Assembly (NCBI GenBank): GCA_029936935.1
Contig: JAPYRQ010000001.1
Span: forward strand, 22,970-86,329
Direction of reading: 5' to 3'
Length of the DNA: 63,360 nucleotides
From: Dehalococcoidia bacterium
GTDB lineage: Bacteria; Chloroflexota; Dehalococcoidia; Lucifugimonadales; UBA1127
In this document: positions 7,211 through 52,064 of the stretch, in pieces
Position numbering within the stretch: position 1 is the first letter of the stretch
Layout of the letters: every line of letters starts with the position of its first letter
Notes under the pieces: generated by a model
What the model was told of the DNA's origin: nothing
The model's input: the letters and a program-made list of their open reading frames with translations, nothing else
Database searches by the model: none
Made by a program: the position numbers and the translations under genes

Positions 7211-8167
7211 ATGAAGAATTCCATCTTGGGTGACGTCACATCCCCAAGGGTTGCATACGTGTTTCCCGGCCAGGGTTCCCAACACGTTGGAATGGGAAAA
7301 GATCTCTATGAACAGTCCCCCGTTGCACGCCAAGTCTTTGACGAGGCAGATAAAGCTCTAGGCATGCCTTTGACTCAGTTGATGTTTGAAGGCCCGGTTG
7401 AAGAGCTGAATCTCACTATCAATGCCCAACCAGCCATCCTTACAGCTAGTCTGGCCTGTCTCACGGCAGCGCAAGAGACTGTGGGATCGGAATTCATGCC
7501 TCAACCCAACTTTGCCGCAGGGCATAGCTTGGGTGAATACACGGCCCTAGCTGCTACCGGCGTATTAAGCGTCCCAGACGCTGTACGCCTGGTACAGGAG
7601 CGGAGCCGTTTGATGCATGAGACGTCACAAAAACAACAAGGCGGTATGGCGGCTGTCCTGGGCCTGGATGAGTTGACCATTGAAGAGATATGCAGAGAGA
7701 CCGGTGCCTATATCTCTAACGTCAACGCTGAAGACCAGGTAGTCATTGCCGGCGATAAAATAACGCTTGCGAGAGCCATGGACCTGGCCAGCGCACGCGG
7801 AGCCAGGCGTCTCATTACCCTTCAAGTCAGCGGAGCATTCCACACAGACCTTATGAAACCATCTGTTGAAGGCATGCGACGGGCAATGGATGAAGCAGAG
7901 TTCAATGCGCCCAGCGTACCTATCATTGGTAACTGCGGCGCCAACCCCATTACCACTGGTGACGAGATCAAGGAAGAACTTCTGCATCAAATGTGCAACT
8001 GCGTCCAGTGGAGGCGGTCCATGTCTTACCTCTGGGATGCCGGCGTTACGCAGTTCTATGAAATTGGCCCTGGAAAAGTTCTCTCCGGTTTGATCCGTAG
8101 GATCTGCCCAGATGCACAGGTCACGGCTGTCAACGATGTGAAAAGCCTGCAATCTCTCGTAAGGTGA
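7211..8167 (+). CDS. fabD: Malonyl-CoA:ACP transacylase
   Basis: The FPGQGSQ and GHSLGEY active-site motifs are present. Confidence 0.9.
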
Positions 8168-8658
8168 ATGTAGTGACGTCACAACAGGCGGCAGTTGAAA
8201 CAATAGCGTGCGATTCCCCCGATGACGAAGAGGATTGGAGTTCAGCGAAACTCCCTCCACGTCGGCGGGCACGAGCCCTCGCACTCCAGGCGCTCTTTGA
8301 GTTGGATGCCACTGAGCATCGATTAGAAGATGTGCTTCAAGCTCTCCTAGATGACAGTGACCTGACCGCCTCCGGCGAAGAATTTGCCAGGGATTTGGTG
8401 ACCGCTGTAGTCCAGGAACATGAACCCCTAGACGTTAAGATTCAGGAGTATGCAACCGCCTGGCCAGTGAACCAGTTGTCATTGGTTGATAGGAGCCTAC
8501 TGCGCCTGGCTGTGTACGAACTGACCATAGGAAAGACCGCCTCAGCAAAGGTTGTGATTAACGAAGCGGTGGAACTGGCCAAACTGTTTGGTGGAGAGAG
8601 TTCCCCCAGGTTCATCAATGGAGTATTGGGCTCCCTACAAGATACGATTAAGGCATGA
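8164..8658 (+). CDS. nusB: Transcription antitermination factor NusB (with ~30-aa acidic N-terminal extension)
   Basis: The [16 protein letters not shown] signature and the [10 protein letters not shown] helix are present. The GTG start overlaps the fabD stop (GTGA). Confidence 0.85.
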
Positions 8659-8691
8659 CCAAAATGGGTAAGGAACGAGGAGGACTACGCA

Positions 8692-8952
8692 ATGGCTAGT
8701 GTTCATGAACGGGTTAAAGGACTGGTGGCGGAACGACTTGGTGTGGATGATGACAAGGTGACTCCGGAAGCTTCATTCACAGAAGACCTCAACGCCGATT
8801 CACTGGATCTGGTTGAGTTGATTATGGCATTTGAAGAAGAGTTCTCAGACGATGATAACTCCCTTGAGATCTCCGACGAAGATGCTGAGCAGATCCGTAC
8901 AGTTCAGAACGCGGTGGACTTCTTGAAGTCTAAAGGCTCACAAGACAGCTAA
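8692..8952 (+). CDS. acpP: Acyl carrier protein
   Basis: The phosphopantetheine site is [19 protein letters not shown] gaggagg lies upstream. Confidence 0.9.
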
Positions 8953-45303: not shown

Positions 45304-46302
45304 TTATTCGCCGATGAGTTTGCCGACCTTGCTGAACACCTTCAACGGGTTATCGTGGAAGATGGCCTGCTTATCGTCATTGCTAAGTATATCCAAGCCA
45401 TCGATGGTGCGGACCAGGTCATCGCCAGGTCGTCCGGTCTCGGGTCGTACTGCTCGACCGGAGCCAGGAACCTCTGTGCCGAAGCACATCTGGCTGACGC
45501 CGCGCTGCTGGATGGCCAGCTCCAGGAACCGGGGGTCAAGGGCGTTGCTGTCATAGAACAGGTTCTTGGTGAAGTCCTTGTCCGGGCCTGAGTGCTGGTA
45601 GTCGGTTGGGATGAAGCGCTGCAGGGCACCACCGCAGTGGCAGATGCAGACCTTCAGGTCCGGGTAGCGATCGAACGTATCGCCGTACATGTACAGCAAG
45701 CTGGCTATGTACTCTTCAACAACGTTGTTGATCTGATAGTTCGCCGGTACTACCTGGAGCCTGGGGTCTTCAGTTGGAGCGGGGTGGACCAGAATCTGCA
45801 CACCAAGCTCTACGCACTTCTCGTAGAAGGGGAACCAATAGGGTTCGTGGACGCCAGGGGCTGTCCGCTTGCCATCGGGATCAGGGTTCAGGTACGCGCC
45901 AACGAAGCCAAGCTCATTCACGCAGTACTCAAGCTCTGCCAGCATATGAGTGGTGTCTGCGGCGGCGGCATCCTGTGGCAACTGGGCCATTCCGGCAAAG
46001 CGATCAGGGTGCAATCGTACCGACTGGGCGATGTGGTCGTTGGTGGCTCGTGACCAGGAATCCTGCAGGAACATGGGCATCCACGCCCACTGGTCTACCG
46101 GGCGAGGCCCGACCAGCTGGAAATCGATGAGCCTGTCATCCATGTCAGCGATGTGGCGAGCAAATGCCGGCTCTGCCACTTCGTCAGAGATGTTCATCTT
46201 CTGAGGTGTCCTGTTGGACATCAGTCCTGCAGCGAACGCTCGAACCTGGGGTGGTCGGGAAATATGTGCGTGAACGTCAACGACTTTGGTGTTATTCCAC
46301 AT
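45304..46302 (-). CDS. Amidohydrolase_2 family metal-dependent hydrolase/decarboxylase (ACMSD-like)
   Basis: The N-terminal metal site VVDVHAHI is present, followed by HPAP, CHCGG and DSN motifs typical of the family. Confidence 0.8.
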   Translation of the reverse strand: MWNNTKVVDVHAHISRPPQVRAFAAGLMSNRTPQKMNISDEVAEPAFARHIADMDDRLIDFQLVGPRPVDQWAWMPMFLQDSWSRATNDHIAQSVRLHPDRFAGMAQLPQDAAAADTTHMLAELEYCVNELGFVGAYLNPDPDGKRTAPGVHEPYWFPFYEKCVELGVQILVHPAPTEDPRLQVVPANYQINNVVEEYIASLLYMYGDTFDRYPDLKVCICHCGGALQRFIPTDYQHSGPDKDFTKNLFYDSNALDPRFLELAIQQRGVSQMCFGTEVPGSGRAVRPETGRPGDDLVRTIDGLDILSNDDKQAIFHDNPLKVFSKVGKLIGE

Positions 46303-46370
46303 GAGGTCATACTCCTTCTTGCGGTGTTTTGCGCAACGCTATTGGGACGCGATTTTGGATATGGAACAGG

Positions 46371-46562
46371 TTATGTCTTTGTGCCAGCCAACTCACCGCA
46401 GGTGATATAGGCTTCTCCCATGGACTTGAAGCTCTGGGTGGTGCCACCGCAGATGACTTCATATACGGGCTGAGGGCCGCCATCCATCACTTCATACAGC
46501 TCAGCTTTTCCCTTTGGCCCTTCAACGGTGTTGAGCAACGTGCGGGAATTTCCTGTAGTCAT
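46371..46562 (-). CDS. Small hypothetical protein (63 aa)
   Basis: A strong RBS ggggagg lies 6 nt upstream of the ATG. It is co-oriented with the amidohydrolase gene and 68 nt upstream of it. Confidence 0.45.
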   Translation of the reverse strand: MTTGNSRTLLNTVEGPKGKAELYEVMDGGPQPVYEVICGGTTQSFKSMGEAYITCGELAGTKT

Positions 46563-46737
46563 AGTCGCCTCCCCTATCGTTTGGGTCTGTGTCTGGGCTC
46601 TCCTTCAAACATAGGGCACAAGTACCGATAGTTAGAAGAACCGCCTCGGCAAGGCATGATATGCGTGGGCTTAATTCCCTGTCAAGCTGACATAAAACGA
46701 ACGTGGGCCTGGGGGTTCTAGAATCACGTTTATGTGT

Positions 46738-46767
46738 GCGGCATGGAATGTTCTCATTCCATGCCGC
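46738..46767. promoter_or_regulatory. Perfect 12-bp inverted repeat (possible operator or hairpin)
   Basis: gcggcatggaat (46738-46749) and attccatgccgc (46756-46767) are separated by a 6-nt spacer. The repeat ends 19 nt upstream of the -35 candidate. Confidence 0.35.
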
Positions 46768-46785
46768 GATAGTTGTTTCTGCTGA

Positions 46786-46814
46786 TTGACACCCCCATGC
46801 GCGCCTCCTACACT
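46786..46814 (+). promoter_or_regulatory. Sigma-70-like promoter candidate (TTGACA-N17-TACACT) for the tandem Rieske genes
   Basis: TTGACA lies at 46786-46791 and TACACT at 46809-46814. This implies a ~140-nt 5' UTR. Confidence 0.45.
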
Positions 46815-46858
46815 CGCGCTAATAACTCAATATGAATTAATTTCCCAGCCCATCATCC

Positions 46859-46942
46859 GGTTTTAGTCTCAGGGCTTTAGCCCGACGGCTTTAGTCCCGG
46901 AAAATGTGAATGGGGCTTTAGTCCGGCAGCTTCAGTCCCCGC
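46859..46942 (+). repeat. Five copies of a GG(C/T)TTTAG(T/C)CC-like motif with 14-nt periodicity
   Basis: TTTAG occurs at 46862, 46876, 46890 and 46917, and TTCAG at 46931. The spacings are 14, 14, 27 and 14 nt. The array ends just before RBS aaaaggag and the TTG start at 46961. Confidence 0.6.
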
Positions 46943-46960
46943 ATAAAAGGAGCGCAGATC

Positions 46961-48241
46961 TTGTTAAGTGCCGAAGAGAATGCATTGTTGTGTCAGACCG
47001 GGCCCGGGACCCCTATGGGGGAGTTGTTCCGACGGTTCTGGCTTCCCGCTGCCCTGTCCGAGGAGCTGCCCGCCCCGGATTGCCCGCCCATCCGACTACG
47101 CATGCTGAGTGAGGACCTGGTGGCGTTTCGCGATACCAATGGCAATGTAGGCATCATCGATTCGTTCTGCCCACATCGTCGCGCTGGCATGTTCTTCGGC
47201 AGGAACGAAGAGTGCGGCTTGCGCTGTGTCTACCACGGTTGGAAGTTTGACGTGAACGGCGATTGTGTAGACATGCCATCGGAGCCGGCGGAGAGCAACT
47301 TCAAAGACAAAGTGAAGATCACAGCGTACCCGGCCCAGGACTTCGGCGGAGTTATCTGGGTGTACATGGGGCCTCAGGAGTTGAAGCCAGAGATACCGCA
47401 GTTTGAGTGGGCGCGGGTGCCGGAAAGCCATCGGTTGGTGAACCGTTGGATTCAGAAGAACAACTACATGCAGGCGGTAGAGGGCGAAATCGATACCGCC
47501 CACGGCTCCTACCTGCATAGTCGCATAGACCCATCGCAGAGGGAGAAAGGTTTCACCTTCGCAGGGAGCCAGGACGGCGCGCCGGTACTCACTGTGCGGG
47601 ACACCGACTACGGGTTTGTATACGGTTCCAGAAGGAACGCACCGGATGGAGAGTTTTATTGGCGGGTGACGCAGTGGCTGCTGCCCACCTATGCGCTCAT
47701 CCCGGGCGGCGACAGTTGGCCGAAGCTCGGCCACATGTACTTCCCCATCGACGATGAGCACCTGGCGGGCTGGGAGTTCTTCTATAACCCGGAGGCGCCG
47801 TTGACCGAAAAGCAGCGAGAAGAAGGGCTGGCGAAGTTTGAACTGTTCCCATCGACGTTCAAGCTTTCTGATGGCGCCTTAATCAATATTCCGAACATGG
47901 AGCGCACTTCCGAGAACGACTACAACATCGATCGGGAGATGCAGCGCAACGAGATATTCACCGGTATCGCAGGCACGCGAAATCAGGACAGGGCTATGAC
48001 GGAGAGCATGGGTTCCATCTCTGATAGGACCGGAGAGCATCTTGGTACATCGGACGCAGCCATTATTGCTGCGCGACGTAGATTGCTGAAGATGGCCCGG
48101 GACCTTCAGGAGGGTATTGAGCCTGTCGCTCCCTACGATGGCAACCTCTATCACATCCGCCAGATCGCTATGACCGTTCCCGAAGGCGACTTCGATGACT
48201 TCCTGTCGGCGTACAGCGACGAGGGGGTCGGTAAGGTCTAG
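46961..48241 (+). CDS. Rieske [2Fe-2S] oxygenase alpha subunit (paralog 2)
   Basis: The Rieske motif is CPHRRAGMFFGRNEECGLRCVYHGW and the Fe motif is EIDTAHGSYLH. TTG start with aaggag RBS. It closely resembles the 34104..35396 protein. Confidence 0.85.
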   Translation: MLSAEENALLCQTGPGTPMGELFRRFWLPAALSEELPAPDCPPIRLRMLSEDLVAFRDTNGNVGIIDSFCPHRRAGMFFGRNEECGLRCVYHGWKFDVNGDCVDMPSEPAESNFKDKVKITAYPAQDFGGVIWVYMGPQELKPEIPQFEWARVPESHRLVNRWIQKNNYMQAVEGEIDTAHGSYLHSRIDPSQREKGFTFAGSQDGAPVLTVRDTDYGFVYGSRRNAPDGEFYWRVTQWLLPTYALIPGGDSWPKLGHMYFPIDDEHLAGWEFFYNPEAPLTEKQREEGLAKFELFPSTFKLSDGALINIPNMERTSENDYNIDREMQRNEIFTGIAGTRNQDRAMTESMGSISDRTGEHLGTSDAAIIAARRRLLKMARDLQEGIEPVAPYDGNLYHIRQIAMTVPEGDFDDFLSAYSDEGVGKV

Positions 48242-48297
48242 CGAGAAGCTACTTATTTACCGGGGATTTATACAACTAAATACTAGGGGAGGGCAAA

Positions 48298-49599
48298 ATG
48301 CTGACACCAGAAGAAACCAAATTTCTAACTCAGACTGGCCCGGGCACACCCATGGGGGACCTCTTTCGTCGTTACTGGCAACCGTTCCTGCTATCAGAGG
48401 AGCTGTCGGAAAACGACGGCCCTGCTAAGCGCGTTCGGTTCCTTGGCGAGGACTTGGTCGCGTTCCGTGACACGGACGGCAAACTAGGCCTCATCGACGA
48501 GCGATGCCCCCACCGCGGTGCATCCATGTACTTCGGCATCAACCAGGAACGCGGCCTGATGTGCATCTACCACGGCTGGAAGTTCGATACCGAGGGCAAC
48601 TGCGTCGATATGCCGTCAGACATTCCCGGCAGCAACTTCATAGACAAGGTCCACATCACCTCATACCCGGTCATTGAGTCCGCCCGGGTGCTGTGGACCT
48701 ACATGGGGCCCAAGGAGCATCAACCGCCACCGCCCAACTACCTAATGAACACATTGCCTGACGAAAACGTGATGGCGATGCGCACGCCCATCTACTGCAA
48801 CTACCTCCAGAGCATTGAGGGCAACCTTGACTCCACCCACATTGGCACGCTCCACATGAGCTACGCCGATGAGATTCCGGTGGATGATGGCACGGACAAG
48901 CCGGGATACCCCTCACTGCCCATGGCCATCCATCTCCGGGCGAAGTACAAGTATGCTCGAGTGGACGTGCAGGACACGGACTACGGGTACCGGTTGATTG
49001 CGGTCCGCCCAACGCCCAACGGGAACCAGCATGTCCGCATCAACAACCTGGCCATTCCCGTCATGACGTGGATTTCCGGCATGAGAGGTGTGGGGAGTAT
49101 CTTCACTCACCCCCCAATCGATGATGAGAACTGTGAGCGGATAGGTTGGCAGGTCAGCCGTGACCGTCCCTTCTCCGCAGCAGAGCGGCAGGCATTCAAA
49201 GCCCGCTCGATGATCATGGACCCGGCTGATCCTAGCAGGCGGCTGATGCGCGTTGACAACGACTACATGCAGGACAGGAAAGCTCAGAAAGAAGTGAACC
49301 CTCCGGGAATCTATCCCGGCGCTGAGCAGGACTACTGCGTGACGGAGACCATGGGTGTGGTCATGGATCGCACCAAGGAGCACCTGTACGGTGGAGACGC
49401 GGCAATCATCAGGCTTCGTCAGATGTTGGGGAAATCGGCGAGAGACCTCAAGGAAGGCATTGAACCTCCCGGAGCCGACGGTAGTATTCCGTACTACAAA
49501 ATACGTTCAGAGGAGATCATCATCGGCCCCAATGATGACCCGTGGTTGGTAGCGACCGATGCCGGTGAGACCGCACGGCCCGGTGAACGACTGCGATAG
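48298..49599 (+). CDS. Rieske [2Fe-2S] oxygenase alpha subunit (paralog 3)
   Basis: The Rieske motif is CPHRGASMYFGINQERGLMCIYHGW and the Fe motif is NLDSTHIGTLH. RBS ggggagggc lies upstream. Confidence 0.85.
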   Translation: MLTPEETKFLTQTGPGTPMGDLFRRYWQPFLLSEELSENDGPAKRVRFLGEDLVAFRDTDGKLGLIDERCPHRGASMYFGINQERGLMCIYHGWKFDTEGNCVDMPSDIPGSNFIDKVHITSYPVIESARVLWTYMGPKEHQPPPPNYLMNTLPDENVMAMRTPIYCNYLQSIEGNLDSTHIGTLHMSYADEIPVDDGTDKPGYPSLPMAIHLRAKYKYARVDVQDTDYGYRLIAVRPTPNGNQHVRINNLAIPVMTWISGMRGVGSIFTHPPIDDENCERIGWQVSRDRPFSAAERQAFKARSMIMDPADPSRRLMRVDNDYMQDRKAQKEVNPPGIYPGAEQDYCVTETMGVVMDRTKEHLYGGDAAIIRLRQMLGKSARDLKEGIEPPGADGSIPYYKIRSEEIIIGPNDDPWLVATDAGETARPGERLR

Positions 49600-49737: not shown

Positions 49738-51549
49738 ATGCTCCAACTACTGACAATCACCAATTATGCGCTCATAGACCACCTGGAACTCTCTCTAGAG
49801 CCGGGGTTGAACGTGTTGACGGGTGAGACCGGGGCTGGCAAGTCCATCATCGTCGATGCCATCGGTCTGCTGCTCGGTGAGCGTGCCGAGGATGAGTCCA
49901 TCAGGGCTGAGACCAAGCAAGCCAGGGTGGAAGGGCTTTTCTCTTTGAGCAAGGCCGCCACCAAGACCATTGCGCCCATCCTTGAAGAGGCTGGCCTCAC
50001 CATTGATGACGGCGAAATCGTGGTAGTCCGTGAAATCAACCAGCAGGGTCGCAACATCTGCAGAATCAACGGAAGCATCGTGCCGCTGAAGGTGCTTTCA
50101 GGCATTGGCGAGTACCTGGTGGACATCCACGGACAGAGCCAACACCTCTCCCTGCTGAACGTCCAAGAGCATCTTGAAATCCTGGATAGGTATGCAGGCC
50201 TGGGTGATTTGCGAGGCAAGATCGCTGACGGCGTCCGTCGCATCAACGCGGCTCGAAACGAGTTAGCGACGTTGCAGGGCGATGCCCAGGAACTTGCCCG
50301 GCGAGTGGACCTGCTGCAATACCAGTACCAGGAAATCACCGGTGTGAAGCTTGAACTCGGTGAAGACGATGCCCTTGAGGCGGAGCAACACCTGTCCGGC
50401 AACGCTGAACGGCTGCAACAACAATCGGACGATGCGTATCGGGCGTTGTACGACGCCGATGGGTCGGGCGTCAGTGCCATCGACCAGTTAGGCCAGGTAG
50501 CTCAGGACACGGCTAACCTGGTAGGGCTTGACCCCTCGCTCACAGACATGAGAGACGCGGCAGAAAGCCTGGTCATCCAGGCCCAGGAGCTTGCACATGC
50601 CCTGCAGTCCTACAGGGACGGTGTGGAACACAGCCCGGAGCGATTGCAGGAGATTGAGGACCGGCTGGAGGTCATCCGACAACTGAAACGCAAGTATGGC
50701 GACACCATCGACGACGTTTTGGCCTTTGCGGAAGATGCGTCAGCCCAGCTCGAAGGCATCACCAACAGCGATGAACGGTCAGAGGCCCTGGAGGCAGAGA
50801 TACTTTCATTGCTGAAGGAAGTGGGTGCGCTGTCCAAGGAACTGTCAGCAGCCCGAAGCGAGGCTGCTTCACGTCTGGCTGTGGCCGTGGAGGGCGAACT
50901 GGGTGGACTGGCAATGGAAGCGACCACGTTCAGGGTAGGCGTGACTCAGGAAGCGTCAGAGGACGGGTTGCTTGTGACTGCTGACGACGGCTCGGAGGCC
51001 CGATATTCCTTTGACGCAACAGGCATTGACCACGTGGAATTCCTCCTATCACCCGGGCCCGGGGAACCGCTGCGTTCACTGGCGGCCACAGCCTCCGGTG
51101 GTGAAGCATCGCGGTTGATGCTGGCTATCAAGGGTGTGCTTACTGCTGCAGACCAGACGCCCACGCTGGTGTTCGACGAGGTGGATGCGGGCATCGGCGG
51201 GCGTATCGGCACGGTTGTCGGCGACAAGACGTGGCGGTTGTCGGCCAACCACCAGGTCGTATGCGTCACCCACCTGCCGCAGATAGCCGCGTTTGCGGAC
51301 CACCACGTACACATCGAGAAGTCTGTGGTACAGGGAAGAACCGTCACTTCGACACAAAAACTCTCCCCCGATGGCATGGTGGAAGAGATCAGCAATATGC
51401 TTGGGTCTACCAGCGCCATAACGCGGAGCCACGCCAAAGAGATGCTTGAGCAAACCTCGAAGTGGAAGAAAGGGTATAGGAACGGTGGAGGGGCTGACCT
51501 GGCGACTCTGCAGCTGAACCTTCTGGACACACCCGGGGAGAGCAACTAA
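49738..51549 (+). CDS. recN: DNA repair protein RecN
   Basis: Walker A is GETGAGKS. A long coiled-coil middle section is followed by the C-terminal SGGE signature and Walker B (LVFDEVDAGIGG). Confidence 0.92.
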   Translation: MLQLLTITNYALIDHLELSLEPGLNVLTGETGAGKSIIVDAIGLLLGERAEDESIRAETKQARVEGLFSLSKAATKTIAPILEEAGLTIDDGEIVVVREINQQGRNICRINGSIVPLKVLSGIGEYLVDIHGQSQHLSLLNVQEHLEILDRYAGLGDLRGKIADGVRRINAARNELATLQGDAQELARRVDLLQYQYQEITGVKLELGEDDALEAEQHLSGNAERLQQQSDDAYRALYDADGSGVSAIDQLGQVAQDTANLVGLDPSLTDMRDAAESLVIQAQELAHALQSYRDGVEHSPERLQEIEDRLEVIRQLKRKYGDTIDDVLAFAEDASAQLEGITNSDERSEALEAEILSLLKEVGALSKELSAARSEAASRLAVAVEGELGGLAMEATTFRVGVTQEASEDGLLVTADDGSEARYSFDATGIDHVEFLLSPGPGEPLRSLAATASGGEASRLMLAIKGVLTAADQTPTLVFDEVDAGIGGRIGTVVGDKTWRLSANHQVVCVTHLPQIAAFADHHVHIEKSVVQGRTVTSTQKLSPDGMVEEISNMLGSTSAITRSHAKEMLEQTSKWKKGYRNGGGADLATLQLNLLDTPGESN

Positions 51550-51602
51550 TATACGTTTCGCCTTCGGGCGGTTTCACACCAGATACAACTAGGGAGGACT
51601 CA

Positions 51603-52064
51603 ATGGCCATAGCAGCAGGACAACCGGCACCGGATTTCACCTTGCCATCAACCAAGGGAGACCCTTTGACACTGAGCAGTCTGAAAGGGAAAAAAGTCGT
51701 CCTGGCCTTCTTCCCGGCGGCATTTACAGGAGGGTGATCAACTGAACTCACTTCCTTCCGTGCGGAGGGAAAAAAGTACGAAGAGCAGGATGCGGAGATC
51801 CTAGGGATTTCTGTAGATAGCCGACCAACACTCAACCAGTATTCCGGCGGTCTTGGAAACCTGAGTTTCCCGTTATTGGCGGACTTCTGGCCCCACGGCG
51901 GCGTTGGTCAGGCATATGGCATCTTCAATGATGAACGTGGCAATGATGCCCGGAGCGTCTTTCTTGTCGATCGAGAGGGCGTCATCCAGTGGACCAAGGT
52001 CTATGAGCCCGGGAACTTGCCGGAGCATGCAGAGTTGCTGGCGGAGCTGGCCAAAATCTCCTAA
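51603..52064 (+). CDS. AhpE-like 1-Cys peroxiredoxin with in-frame TGA (51735-51737) at the peroxidatic residue; candidate selenocysteine protein
   Basis: ATG 51603 has RBS agggagga. The 153-codon frame contains a single internal TGA. The context FFPAAFTGG[TGA]STEL corresponds to the Prx FFPxAFTGxC motif. The C-terminal half FPLLADFWPHGGVGQAYGIF...FLVDREGVIQW is AhpE-like. The ORF track shows only the 51876..52064 fragment. Confidence 0.7.
51752..51771 (+). promoter_or_regulatory. Candidate bacterial SECIS hairpin
   Basis: The RNA reads UUCCUUCC-GUGC-GGAGGGAA, an 8-bp stem with one G.U pair. It starts 14 nt after the UGA, and the apical loop begins with GU. Confidence 0.45.

Follow-up and report, generated by a model that had tools for sequence, protein, structure and literature searches.

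Features used to recognize the AhpE subfamily of peroxiredoxins include A-type dimers, a preference for fatty-acid hydroperoxides and peroxynitrite, and recycling that depends on mycoredoxin and mycothiol; the AhpE of Mycobacterium tuberculosis is recycled by mycoredoxin-1. Peroxiredoxins that use selenocysteine (Sec) make up "Prx (PF00578, TxxU)," an established selenoprotein family of Zhang and Gladyshev (PMC1794560, PMC2398784; reviewed in PMC13188914, which describes the PxxxTxxU motif). Zhang et al. (2006) assigned 12 members and 5 Cys-to-Sec events to this family (PMC1794560), and with 253 sequences it ranked sixth in abundance in the GOS ocean metagenomes (PMC2398784). A Sec-peroxiredoxin has also been verified experimentally, namely, PrxU of Eubacterium acidaminophilum (Sohling 2001, as cited in PMC13188914).

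The locus analyzed here lies between genes for a RecN-like protein and TrmI in a 63,360-nt stretch of Dehalococcoidia DNA, which we refer to as the window. The first-pass annotation had claimed that a single continuous 153-codon frame preceded by a ribosome-binding site is present at this position, and we could confirm each element of this claim. The frame (51603..52064, plus strand) runs for 153 codons from its ATG to a TAA at 52062-52064, and upon translation its sole internal stop is the TGA at 51735-51737, which is codon 45. A Shine-Dalgarno-like AGGGAGGA read from the sequence (51591..51598, plus strand) is located 4 nt upstream of ATG 51603. The mechanical list of open reading frames (ORFs), by comparison, represents the prx gene only as a 44-aa piece at 51603-51737 and a 62-aa piece at 51876-52064. 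A sigma-70-like promoter match (TGGACA, 17-nt spacer, TAATAT; 51524..51552, plus strand) overlaps the end of recN; it is a consensus match only, in a region where three promoter-like sites were found relative to 0.4 expected from shuffles. Judging from sequence comparisons, we consider it very probable that this gene is a functional selenoprotein gene encoding a 153-residue AhpE-like "1-Sec" peroxiredoxin, with Sec at codon 45 as the peroxidatic residue.

The family assignment was made on the protein with Cys substituted at codon 45. This protein matched Pfam AhpC-TSA with an E value of 2.9e-33 and 114.9 bits (cutoff, 26), and its best match in the PDB was M. tuberculosis AhpE (Rv2238c; 1xxu, 4x0x; E value, 8e-32). 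The next peroxiredoxin type in the PDB search was about ten orders of magnitude worse (E value, 2.8e-21). The window protein and M. tuberculosis AhpE are 43% identical by BLASTP, equal in length (153 aa), and collinear; they share FPLL(A/S)DFWPHG and the catalytic Pro, Thr, and Arg, and neither has a resolving Cys. They differ at the peroxidatic position, where AhpE has Cys45 and the window protein would have Sec. As the first-pass annotation had claimed, the alignment to the PDB entry places the UGA (51735..51737, plus strand) exactly on Cys45 (FTGIC versus FTGG*, the asterisk marking the UGA). The active-site motif PAAFTGGU, which conforms to PxxxTxxU with Pro38, Thr42, and the predicted Sec45, spans 51714..51737 (plus strand). 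The catalytic Arg that peroxiredoxins conserve is Arg117 here; its codon is at 51951..51953 (plus strand), and the residue corresponds to Arg116 of M. tuberculosis AhpE (NRGTF versus ARSVF). The peroxiredoxin tetrad Pro38/Thr42/Sec45/Arg117 is thus complete in the window protein, and the Pro38, Cys45, and Arg117 columns are invariant among 36 homologs.

Comparison with the known Sec-peroxiredoxins reveals both overlap and differences. The window protein resembles the Prx (PF00578, TxxU) family in its PF00578 domain, its PxxxTxxU motif, the predicted Sec in place of the peroxidatic Cys, the bacterial Sec insertion sequence (bSECIS) downstream, and the existence of many Cys homologs. Unlike the clade to which the window protein belongs, however, that family is a broad, motif-defined bin containing several peroxiredoxin subfamilies. 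PrxU (NCBIfam NF040737) was the top NCBIfam match, and in both proteins the Sec is the peroxidatic residue within TxxU. Since the match scored 78.5 bits and the curated cutoff is 270, the window protein does not belong to the PrxU equivalog. PrxU is a Prx1/AhpC-type protein of a strict anaerobe with a 233-position model, whereas the window protein is AhpE-like and has 153 aa.

The UGA is followed by a candidate bSECIS element (51746..51777, plus strand) consisting of a 3-bp outer helix (51746-51748 with 51775-51777), an 8-bp upper stem with one G.U pair (UUCCUUCC at 51752-51759 with GGAGGGAA at 51764-51771), and a 4-nt apical loop, GUGC (51760-51763), all on the plus strand. The upper stem starts 14 nt after the UGA and is part of the minimum-free-energy fold, in agreement with the SECIS-like hairpin that had been described at this position. 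In the published bSECIS model, the upper stem has 4 to 16 bp, the spacing is 16 to 37 nt, and the free energy is at most -7.5 kcal/mol (PMC13188914, Fig. 2). The window hairpin, which has a 4-nt loop with G in the first position, an 8-bp stem, a spacing of 22 nt, and a free energy of -10.4 kcal/mol, agrees with all four criteria of that model. No SECIS or other relevant match was obtained from Rfam, either at the gathering threshold over the window or at a permissive E value over 51650-51900. The 66-nt fold taken alone does not stand out from shuffled sequence (z, -0.43), and it is only the comparison with relatives that sets the hairpin apart from chance.

In that comparison, the hairpin lies at the same offset from the UGA in all lineages. 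Loop nucleotides G26 and U27 (counted from the U of the UGA) are invariant in a 20-sequence alignment, and the GU is kept even where the codon switches from CGU (Arg) to AGU (Ser). Across 13 Dehalococcoidia sequences, 89.5% of the pair cells are standard, relative to 41 to 59% when the partners are slid by 1 to 3 columns. Four stem pairs covary in these 13 sequences, with changes on both sides; pair 21-34, for example, occurs as CG, UA, AU, GU, and UG. The covariation check suggested by the first-pass annotation therefore came out in favor of the hairpin. The same annotation had held that TGA-containing homologs without a conserved hairpin would speak against Sec. A hairpin was found in all lineages, but the fit is poorer outside the Dehalococcoidia: the contiguous stems of the Burkholderiales forms are shorter and weak (-2.4 to -7.8 kcal/mol), and the best simple hairpin of a Chloroflexia form (locus L029) is atypical, with no G in its first two loop positions.

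Two additional structures were observed around the UGA. A long-range 17-bp helix (51716-51732 with 51808-51826) encloses both the UGA and the bSECIS element, and the corresponding 116-nt fold has a z score of -3.3. We rejected this outer helix as a functional element: 13 to 16 of its 17 pairs are retained in the window and its nearest relatives and only 7 to 9 of 17 in other subclades, and on this comparison the helix is probably incidental. In the Dehalococcoidia subclade of loci L001, L002, and L017 to L021, a GCCGCC...GGCGGC hairpin is formed by the PAAFTGG codons, covering the 20 nt on the 5' side of the UGA and reaching right up to it; this hairpin is absent from the window's own subclade.

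Database relatives of the gene are split in the same way as the window copy. The six closest database proteins (63 to 82% identity) are all 90- to 100-aa C-terminal fragments, and full-length Cys forms are at most ~50% identical to the window protein. In the contigs of the relatives, each fragment directly follows a 44-aa N-terminal AhpC-TSA ORF, and the recN-prx-trmI synteny is conserved. Intact orthologous frames with the same single TGA were recovered at loci L001 to L021 and L096. In a scan of species-representative genomes, a single TGA within an intact 152- to 153-codon frame occurred in at least 16 species-level genomes, comprising 8 Dehalococcoidia, 7 Burkholderiales, and 1 Chloroflexia. 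The 8 Dehalococcoidia are marine metagenome-assembled genomes (MAGs) with 68 to 95% identity to the window protein, two of them closed chromosomes (OZ220679.1, which carries L020, and OX638292.1, which carries L021). The 7 Burkholderiales (Betaproteobacteria) MAGs are ~50% identical and read FTGG*KNQ or FTGG*TNQ, and the Chloroflexia MAG reads FTPI*TSQ. The TGA-bearing frame was also recovered from marine metagenome contigs and from another 7 metagenome loci. All relatives are MAGs or metagenome contigs.

When Cys codons were tabulated against TGA at the codon 45 column, TGA, TGC, and TGT were the only codons found. TGA accounted for 29 of the 82 loci typed in the first scans and for 7 of 63 in the metagenome scan; the remainder were all TGC or TGT, and the homologs in Actinomycetota had TGC or TGT in this column. 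That the true codon in the window is also TGC or TGT, misread by a sequencing or assembly error at 51735-51737, would require a difference of just a single base. Nevertheless, independent assemblies from ENA, JGI, and Logan, the GenBank MAGs, and the two closed chromosomes all have TGA here, and these stem from different projects and sequencing technologies; an error of this kind is vanishingly improbable.

The same one-base difference means that a nonsense mutation from TGC or TGT could have turned a Cys peroxiredoxin gene into a decaying pseudogene, a reading also in keeping with the splitting of the gene by gene callers and with the lack of visible Sec machinery in the window. Pseudogene-type stops or frameshifts in close relatives had been named in the first-pass annotation as grounds for abandoning the selenoprotein assignment. 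We looked for them and found no extra stop or frameshift in the prx frames of the relatives, and no decayed prx copy among 175 loci. The at least 16 species-level genomes that share this TGA instead span two phyla, and a covarying hairpin is kept downstream of it. Nei-Gojobori dN/dS ratios lie far under 1 both before and after the TGA, at 0.02 to 0.40 for codons 1 to 44 and 0.03 to 0.30 for codons 46 to 153, with dS in these comparisons often near saturation and reaching it in some. Decay of the gene is thus highly unlikely. Since the TGA is conserved, the frames are intact, and dN/dS is low in relatives, both a pseudogene and an assembly error can be effectively excluded.

The remaining alternative concerns the amino acid that is inserted. 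Of the 54 long ORFs in the window, 10 end in TGA, among them fabD (7211-8167) and nusB (8164-8658), so the genetic code is standard, and the earlier statement that a reassigned code is not the explanation holds. A possible same-frame read-through from nusB into acpP (window 8164-8952) was considered and dismissed, as nusB stops at its TGA (8656-8658) and the two are separate genes. ARAGORN detected 60 tRNAs in the window and 93 loci, none of them tRNA-Sec, and tblastn with Escherichia coli SelA, SelB, and SelD gave no match in the window or in any of the loci. In sum, none of selA, selB, selC, and selD, for which the first-pass annotation had proposed a search, lies within the 63-kb window or the ~1.4 Mb of fetched flanks. 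A scan of the window and the Dehalococcoidia flanks for further selenoprotein genes, recognizable as frames broken by just one TGA, returned prx as the only credible candidate.

With the machinery not located in the window and flanks, and with Sec insertion itself being deduced, the UGA might instead be recoded or read through as Cys, Trp, or Gly, whether by hairpin-stimulated near-cognate suppression or by a lineage-specific code change. Known Sec systems can indeed insert Cys or Trp at UGA under selenium limitation. Nevertheless, TGA is an ordinary stop in this DNA, and an enzyme with Trp or Gly as its peroxidatic residue would be inactive, which is at odds with the strong purifying selection acting on the gene. 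The hairpin, moreover, has the geometry of a SelB-type bSECIS: the GU in its loop does not vary, and its distance from the UGA is constant. The class is also documented as rich in Sec: in BSepDB, which covers only species with a Sec pathway, two Dehalococcoidia MAGs, one with 49 selenoprotein genes and the other with 46, rank among the top ten (PMC13326102). This class-level record is the one source of support for Sec decoding in the lineage (PMC13326102). On balance, insertion of a standard amino acid appears improbable, and we favor Sec at codon 45.

Assuming Sec at this position, we infer its insertion, the presence of selABCD in this genome, and the substrate and reductant of the enzyme as follows. 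A ribosome that meets the UGA at codon 45 would encounter the hairpin 14 nt downstream, which has a G-U in its loop 22 nt after the UGA and would act as the SECIS. This element would recruit SelB with Sec-tRNA(Sec), and Sec would be inserted without termination. Based on what is known of the family, the selenolate in the PxxxTxxU pocket would, together with Arg117, attack a hydroperoxide or peroxynitrite and be converted to a selenenic acid. The selenenic acid would then be recycled by an external thiol partner; such a partner would be required because the protein, like the Burkholderiales forms, contains no Cys at all and hence no resolving Cys.

Fusion of relatives to a glutaredoxin domain makes a protein of the glutaredoxin/mycoredoxin type the most likely recycling partner. 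In the Chloroflexia MAG CAVOGL010000023.1 (L029:10003-10864), the AhpE-like Sec-peroxiredoxin (FTPI*TSQ) carries at its C terminus a glutaredoxin domain (PF00462; E value, 7.8e-14) that contains a CPSC motif, and this peroxiredoxin-glutaredoxin architecture recurs in the Cys homolog P0007. A tblastn search for a glutaredoxin partner within the window returned nothing. To our knowledge, mycothiol is confined to Actinomycetota, so the reductant of the window protein would have to differ from that of AhpE.

In a neighbor-joining tree, the Sec forms from Dehalococcoidia and Burkholderiales cluster in one clade, which is sister to the actinobacterial AhpE clade rather than nested within it, and the Chloroflexia Sec form is placed elsewhere, among Cys forms. 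Given this placement of the Sec clade, "AhpE-like" is the more cautious label. The tree pattern suggests horizontal spread of one Sec lineage, together with independent Cys-to-Sec switches. The metagenome scan yielded the additional variants FTPV*TAQ, FTGT*TNE, and FTPV*SSQ. These were seen as FTPV*TAQMPS, FTGT*TNEMQG, and FTPV*SSQFPA in the JGI contigs L097 to L099, L135, L114, and L168, each of which has a strong hairpin downstream (-19 to -29 kcal/mol). The diversity of these metagenome variants likewise suggests that several switches from Cys to Sec may have occurred independently.

We also asked how much of this was already represented in public data. The first-pass annotation had regarded a Sec form of the AhpE subfamily as uncharacterized, and indeed none of the papers covered by a literature search describes one or assigns Sec-peroxiredoxins to an AhpE-like group. 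This view must be qualified, however: in addition to the known Prx TxxU family, the GOS selenoprotein dataset of 2008 contains at least two reads of the Burkholderiales-type FTGGU sister clade (PMC2398784). One of these, JCVI_READ_1095368000334, aligns with the full-length window protein at 52% identity and is thus closer to it than M. tuberculosis AhpE (43%); the other is JCVI_READ_1095344034836. The Dehalococcoidia variant, PAAFTGGU-STELT/TNELT, was not among the GOS dataset matches listed (PMC2398784). The association of Sec-peroxiredoxins with anaerobes and metagenomes, as originally worded, needs qualifying: the family is not confined to anaerobes and, in metagenomes of the surface ocean, belongs to the selenoprotein families of highest abundance (PMC2398784). 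These comparisons do not support a claim to a previously unknown kind of selenoprotein; what may be new is the label of an AhpE-like, Cys-free "1-Sec" subfamily and its Dehalococcoidia members.

A single scenario that would join these observations can be offered only tentatively, and we regard it as possible rather than probable as a whole. The FTGGU clade would be a distinct, unnamed subfamily of Cys-free, "1-Sec" AhpE-like peroxiredoxins that depend on an external glutaredoxin-type reductant. Transfer between marine Dehalococcoidia and Burkholderiales of freshwater or soil would have carried the gene along with its SECIS. FTPIU, FTPVU, and FTGTU would represent independent switches, one of them fused to glutaredoxin, and the Dehalococcoidia members would be absent from selenoprotein catalogues.

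The consequences of the assignment lie mainly in genome annotation. Gene callers split prx into a 44-aa ORF and a 62- to 100-aa ORF in every genome examined, and a corrected annotation would give an antioxidant enzyme back to marine Dehalococcoidia. An abundant ocean lineage would thereby gain a candidate Cys-free, Sec-dependent AhpE-like peroxiredoxin. The combination of a Cys-free Sec form with glutaredoxin-fused relatives suggests a testable catalytic cycle involving a selenenic acid and glutaredoxin, and the protein is also a candidate for biochemical work on Cys-free 1-Sec peroxiredoxins. The understanding of Sec decoding itself is unchanged, as Sec-peroxiredoxins have been known since 2001 and the sister clade has been in a public dataset since 2008.

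Two observations fall outside this argument. In the GOS dataset, the AhpE-like read JCVI_READ_1092452111126 has Cys at the peroxidatic position (FTGTC) and a "U" annotated near its C terminus (…VVNTPRUSANISRIQDAH; PMC2398784, supplementary file 3); this "U" may represent either genuine Sec at the C terminus or a normal stop codon miscalled as Sec. Just upstream of recN, window 45304-49599 contains an Amidohydro_2 gene on the minus strand followed by two tandem Rieske/LigXa_C oxygenase genes. This arrangement, which is conserved in L001 and L002, looks like a cassette for the oxidation of aromatic or recalcitrant carbon.
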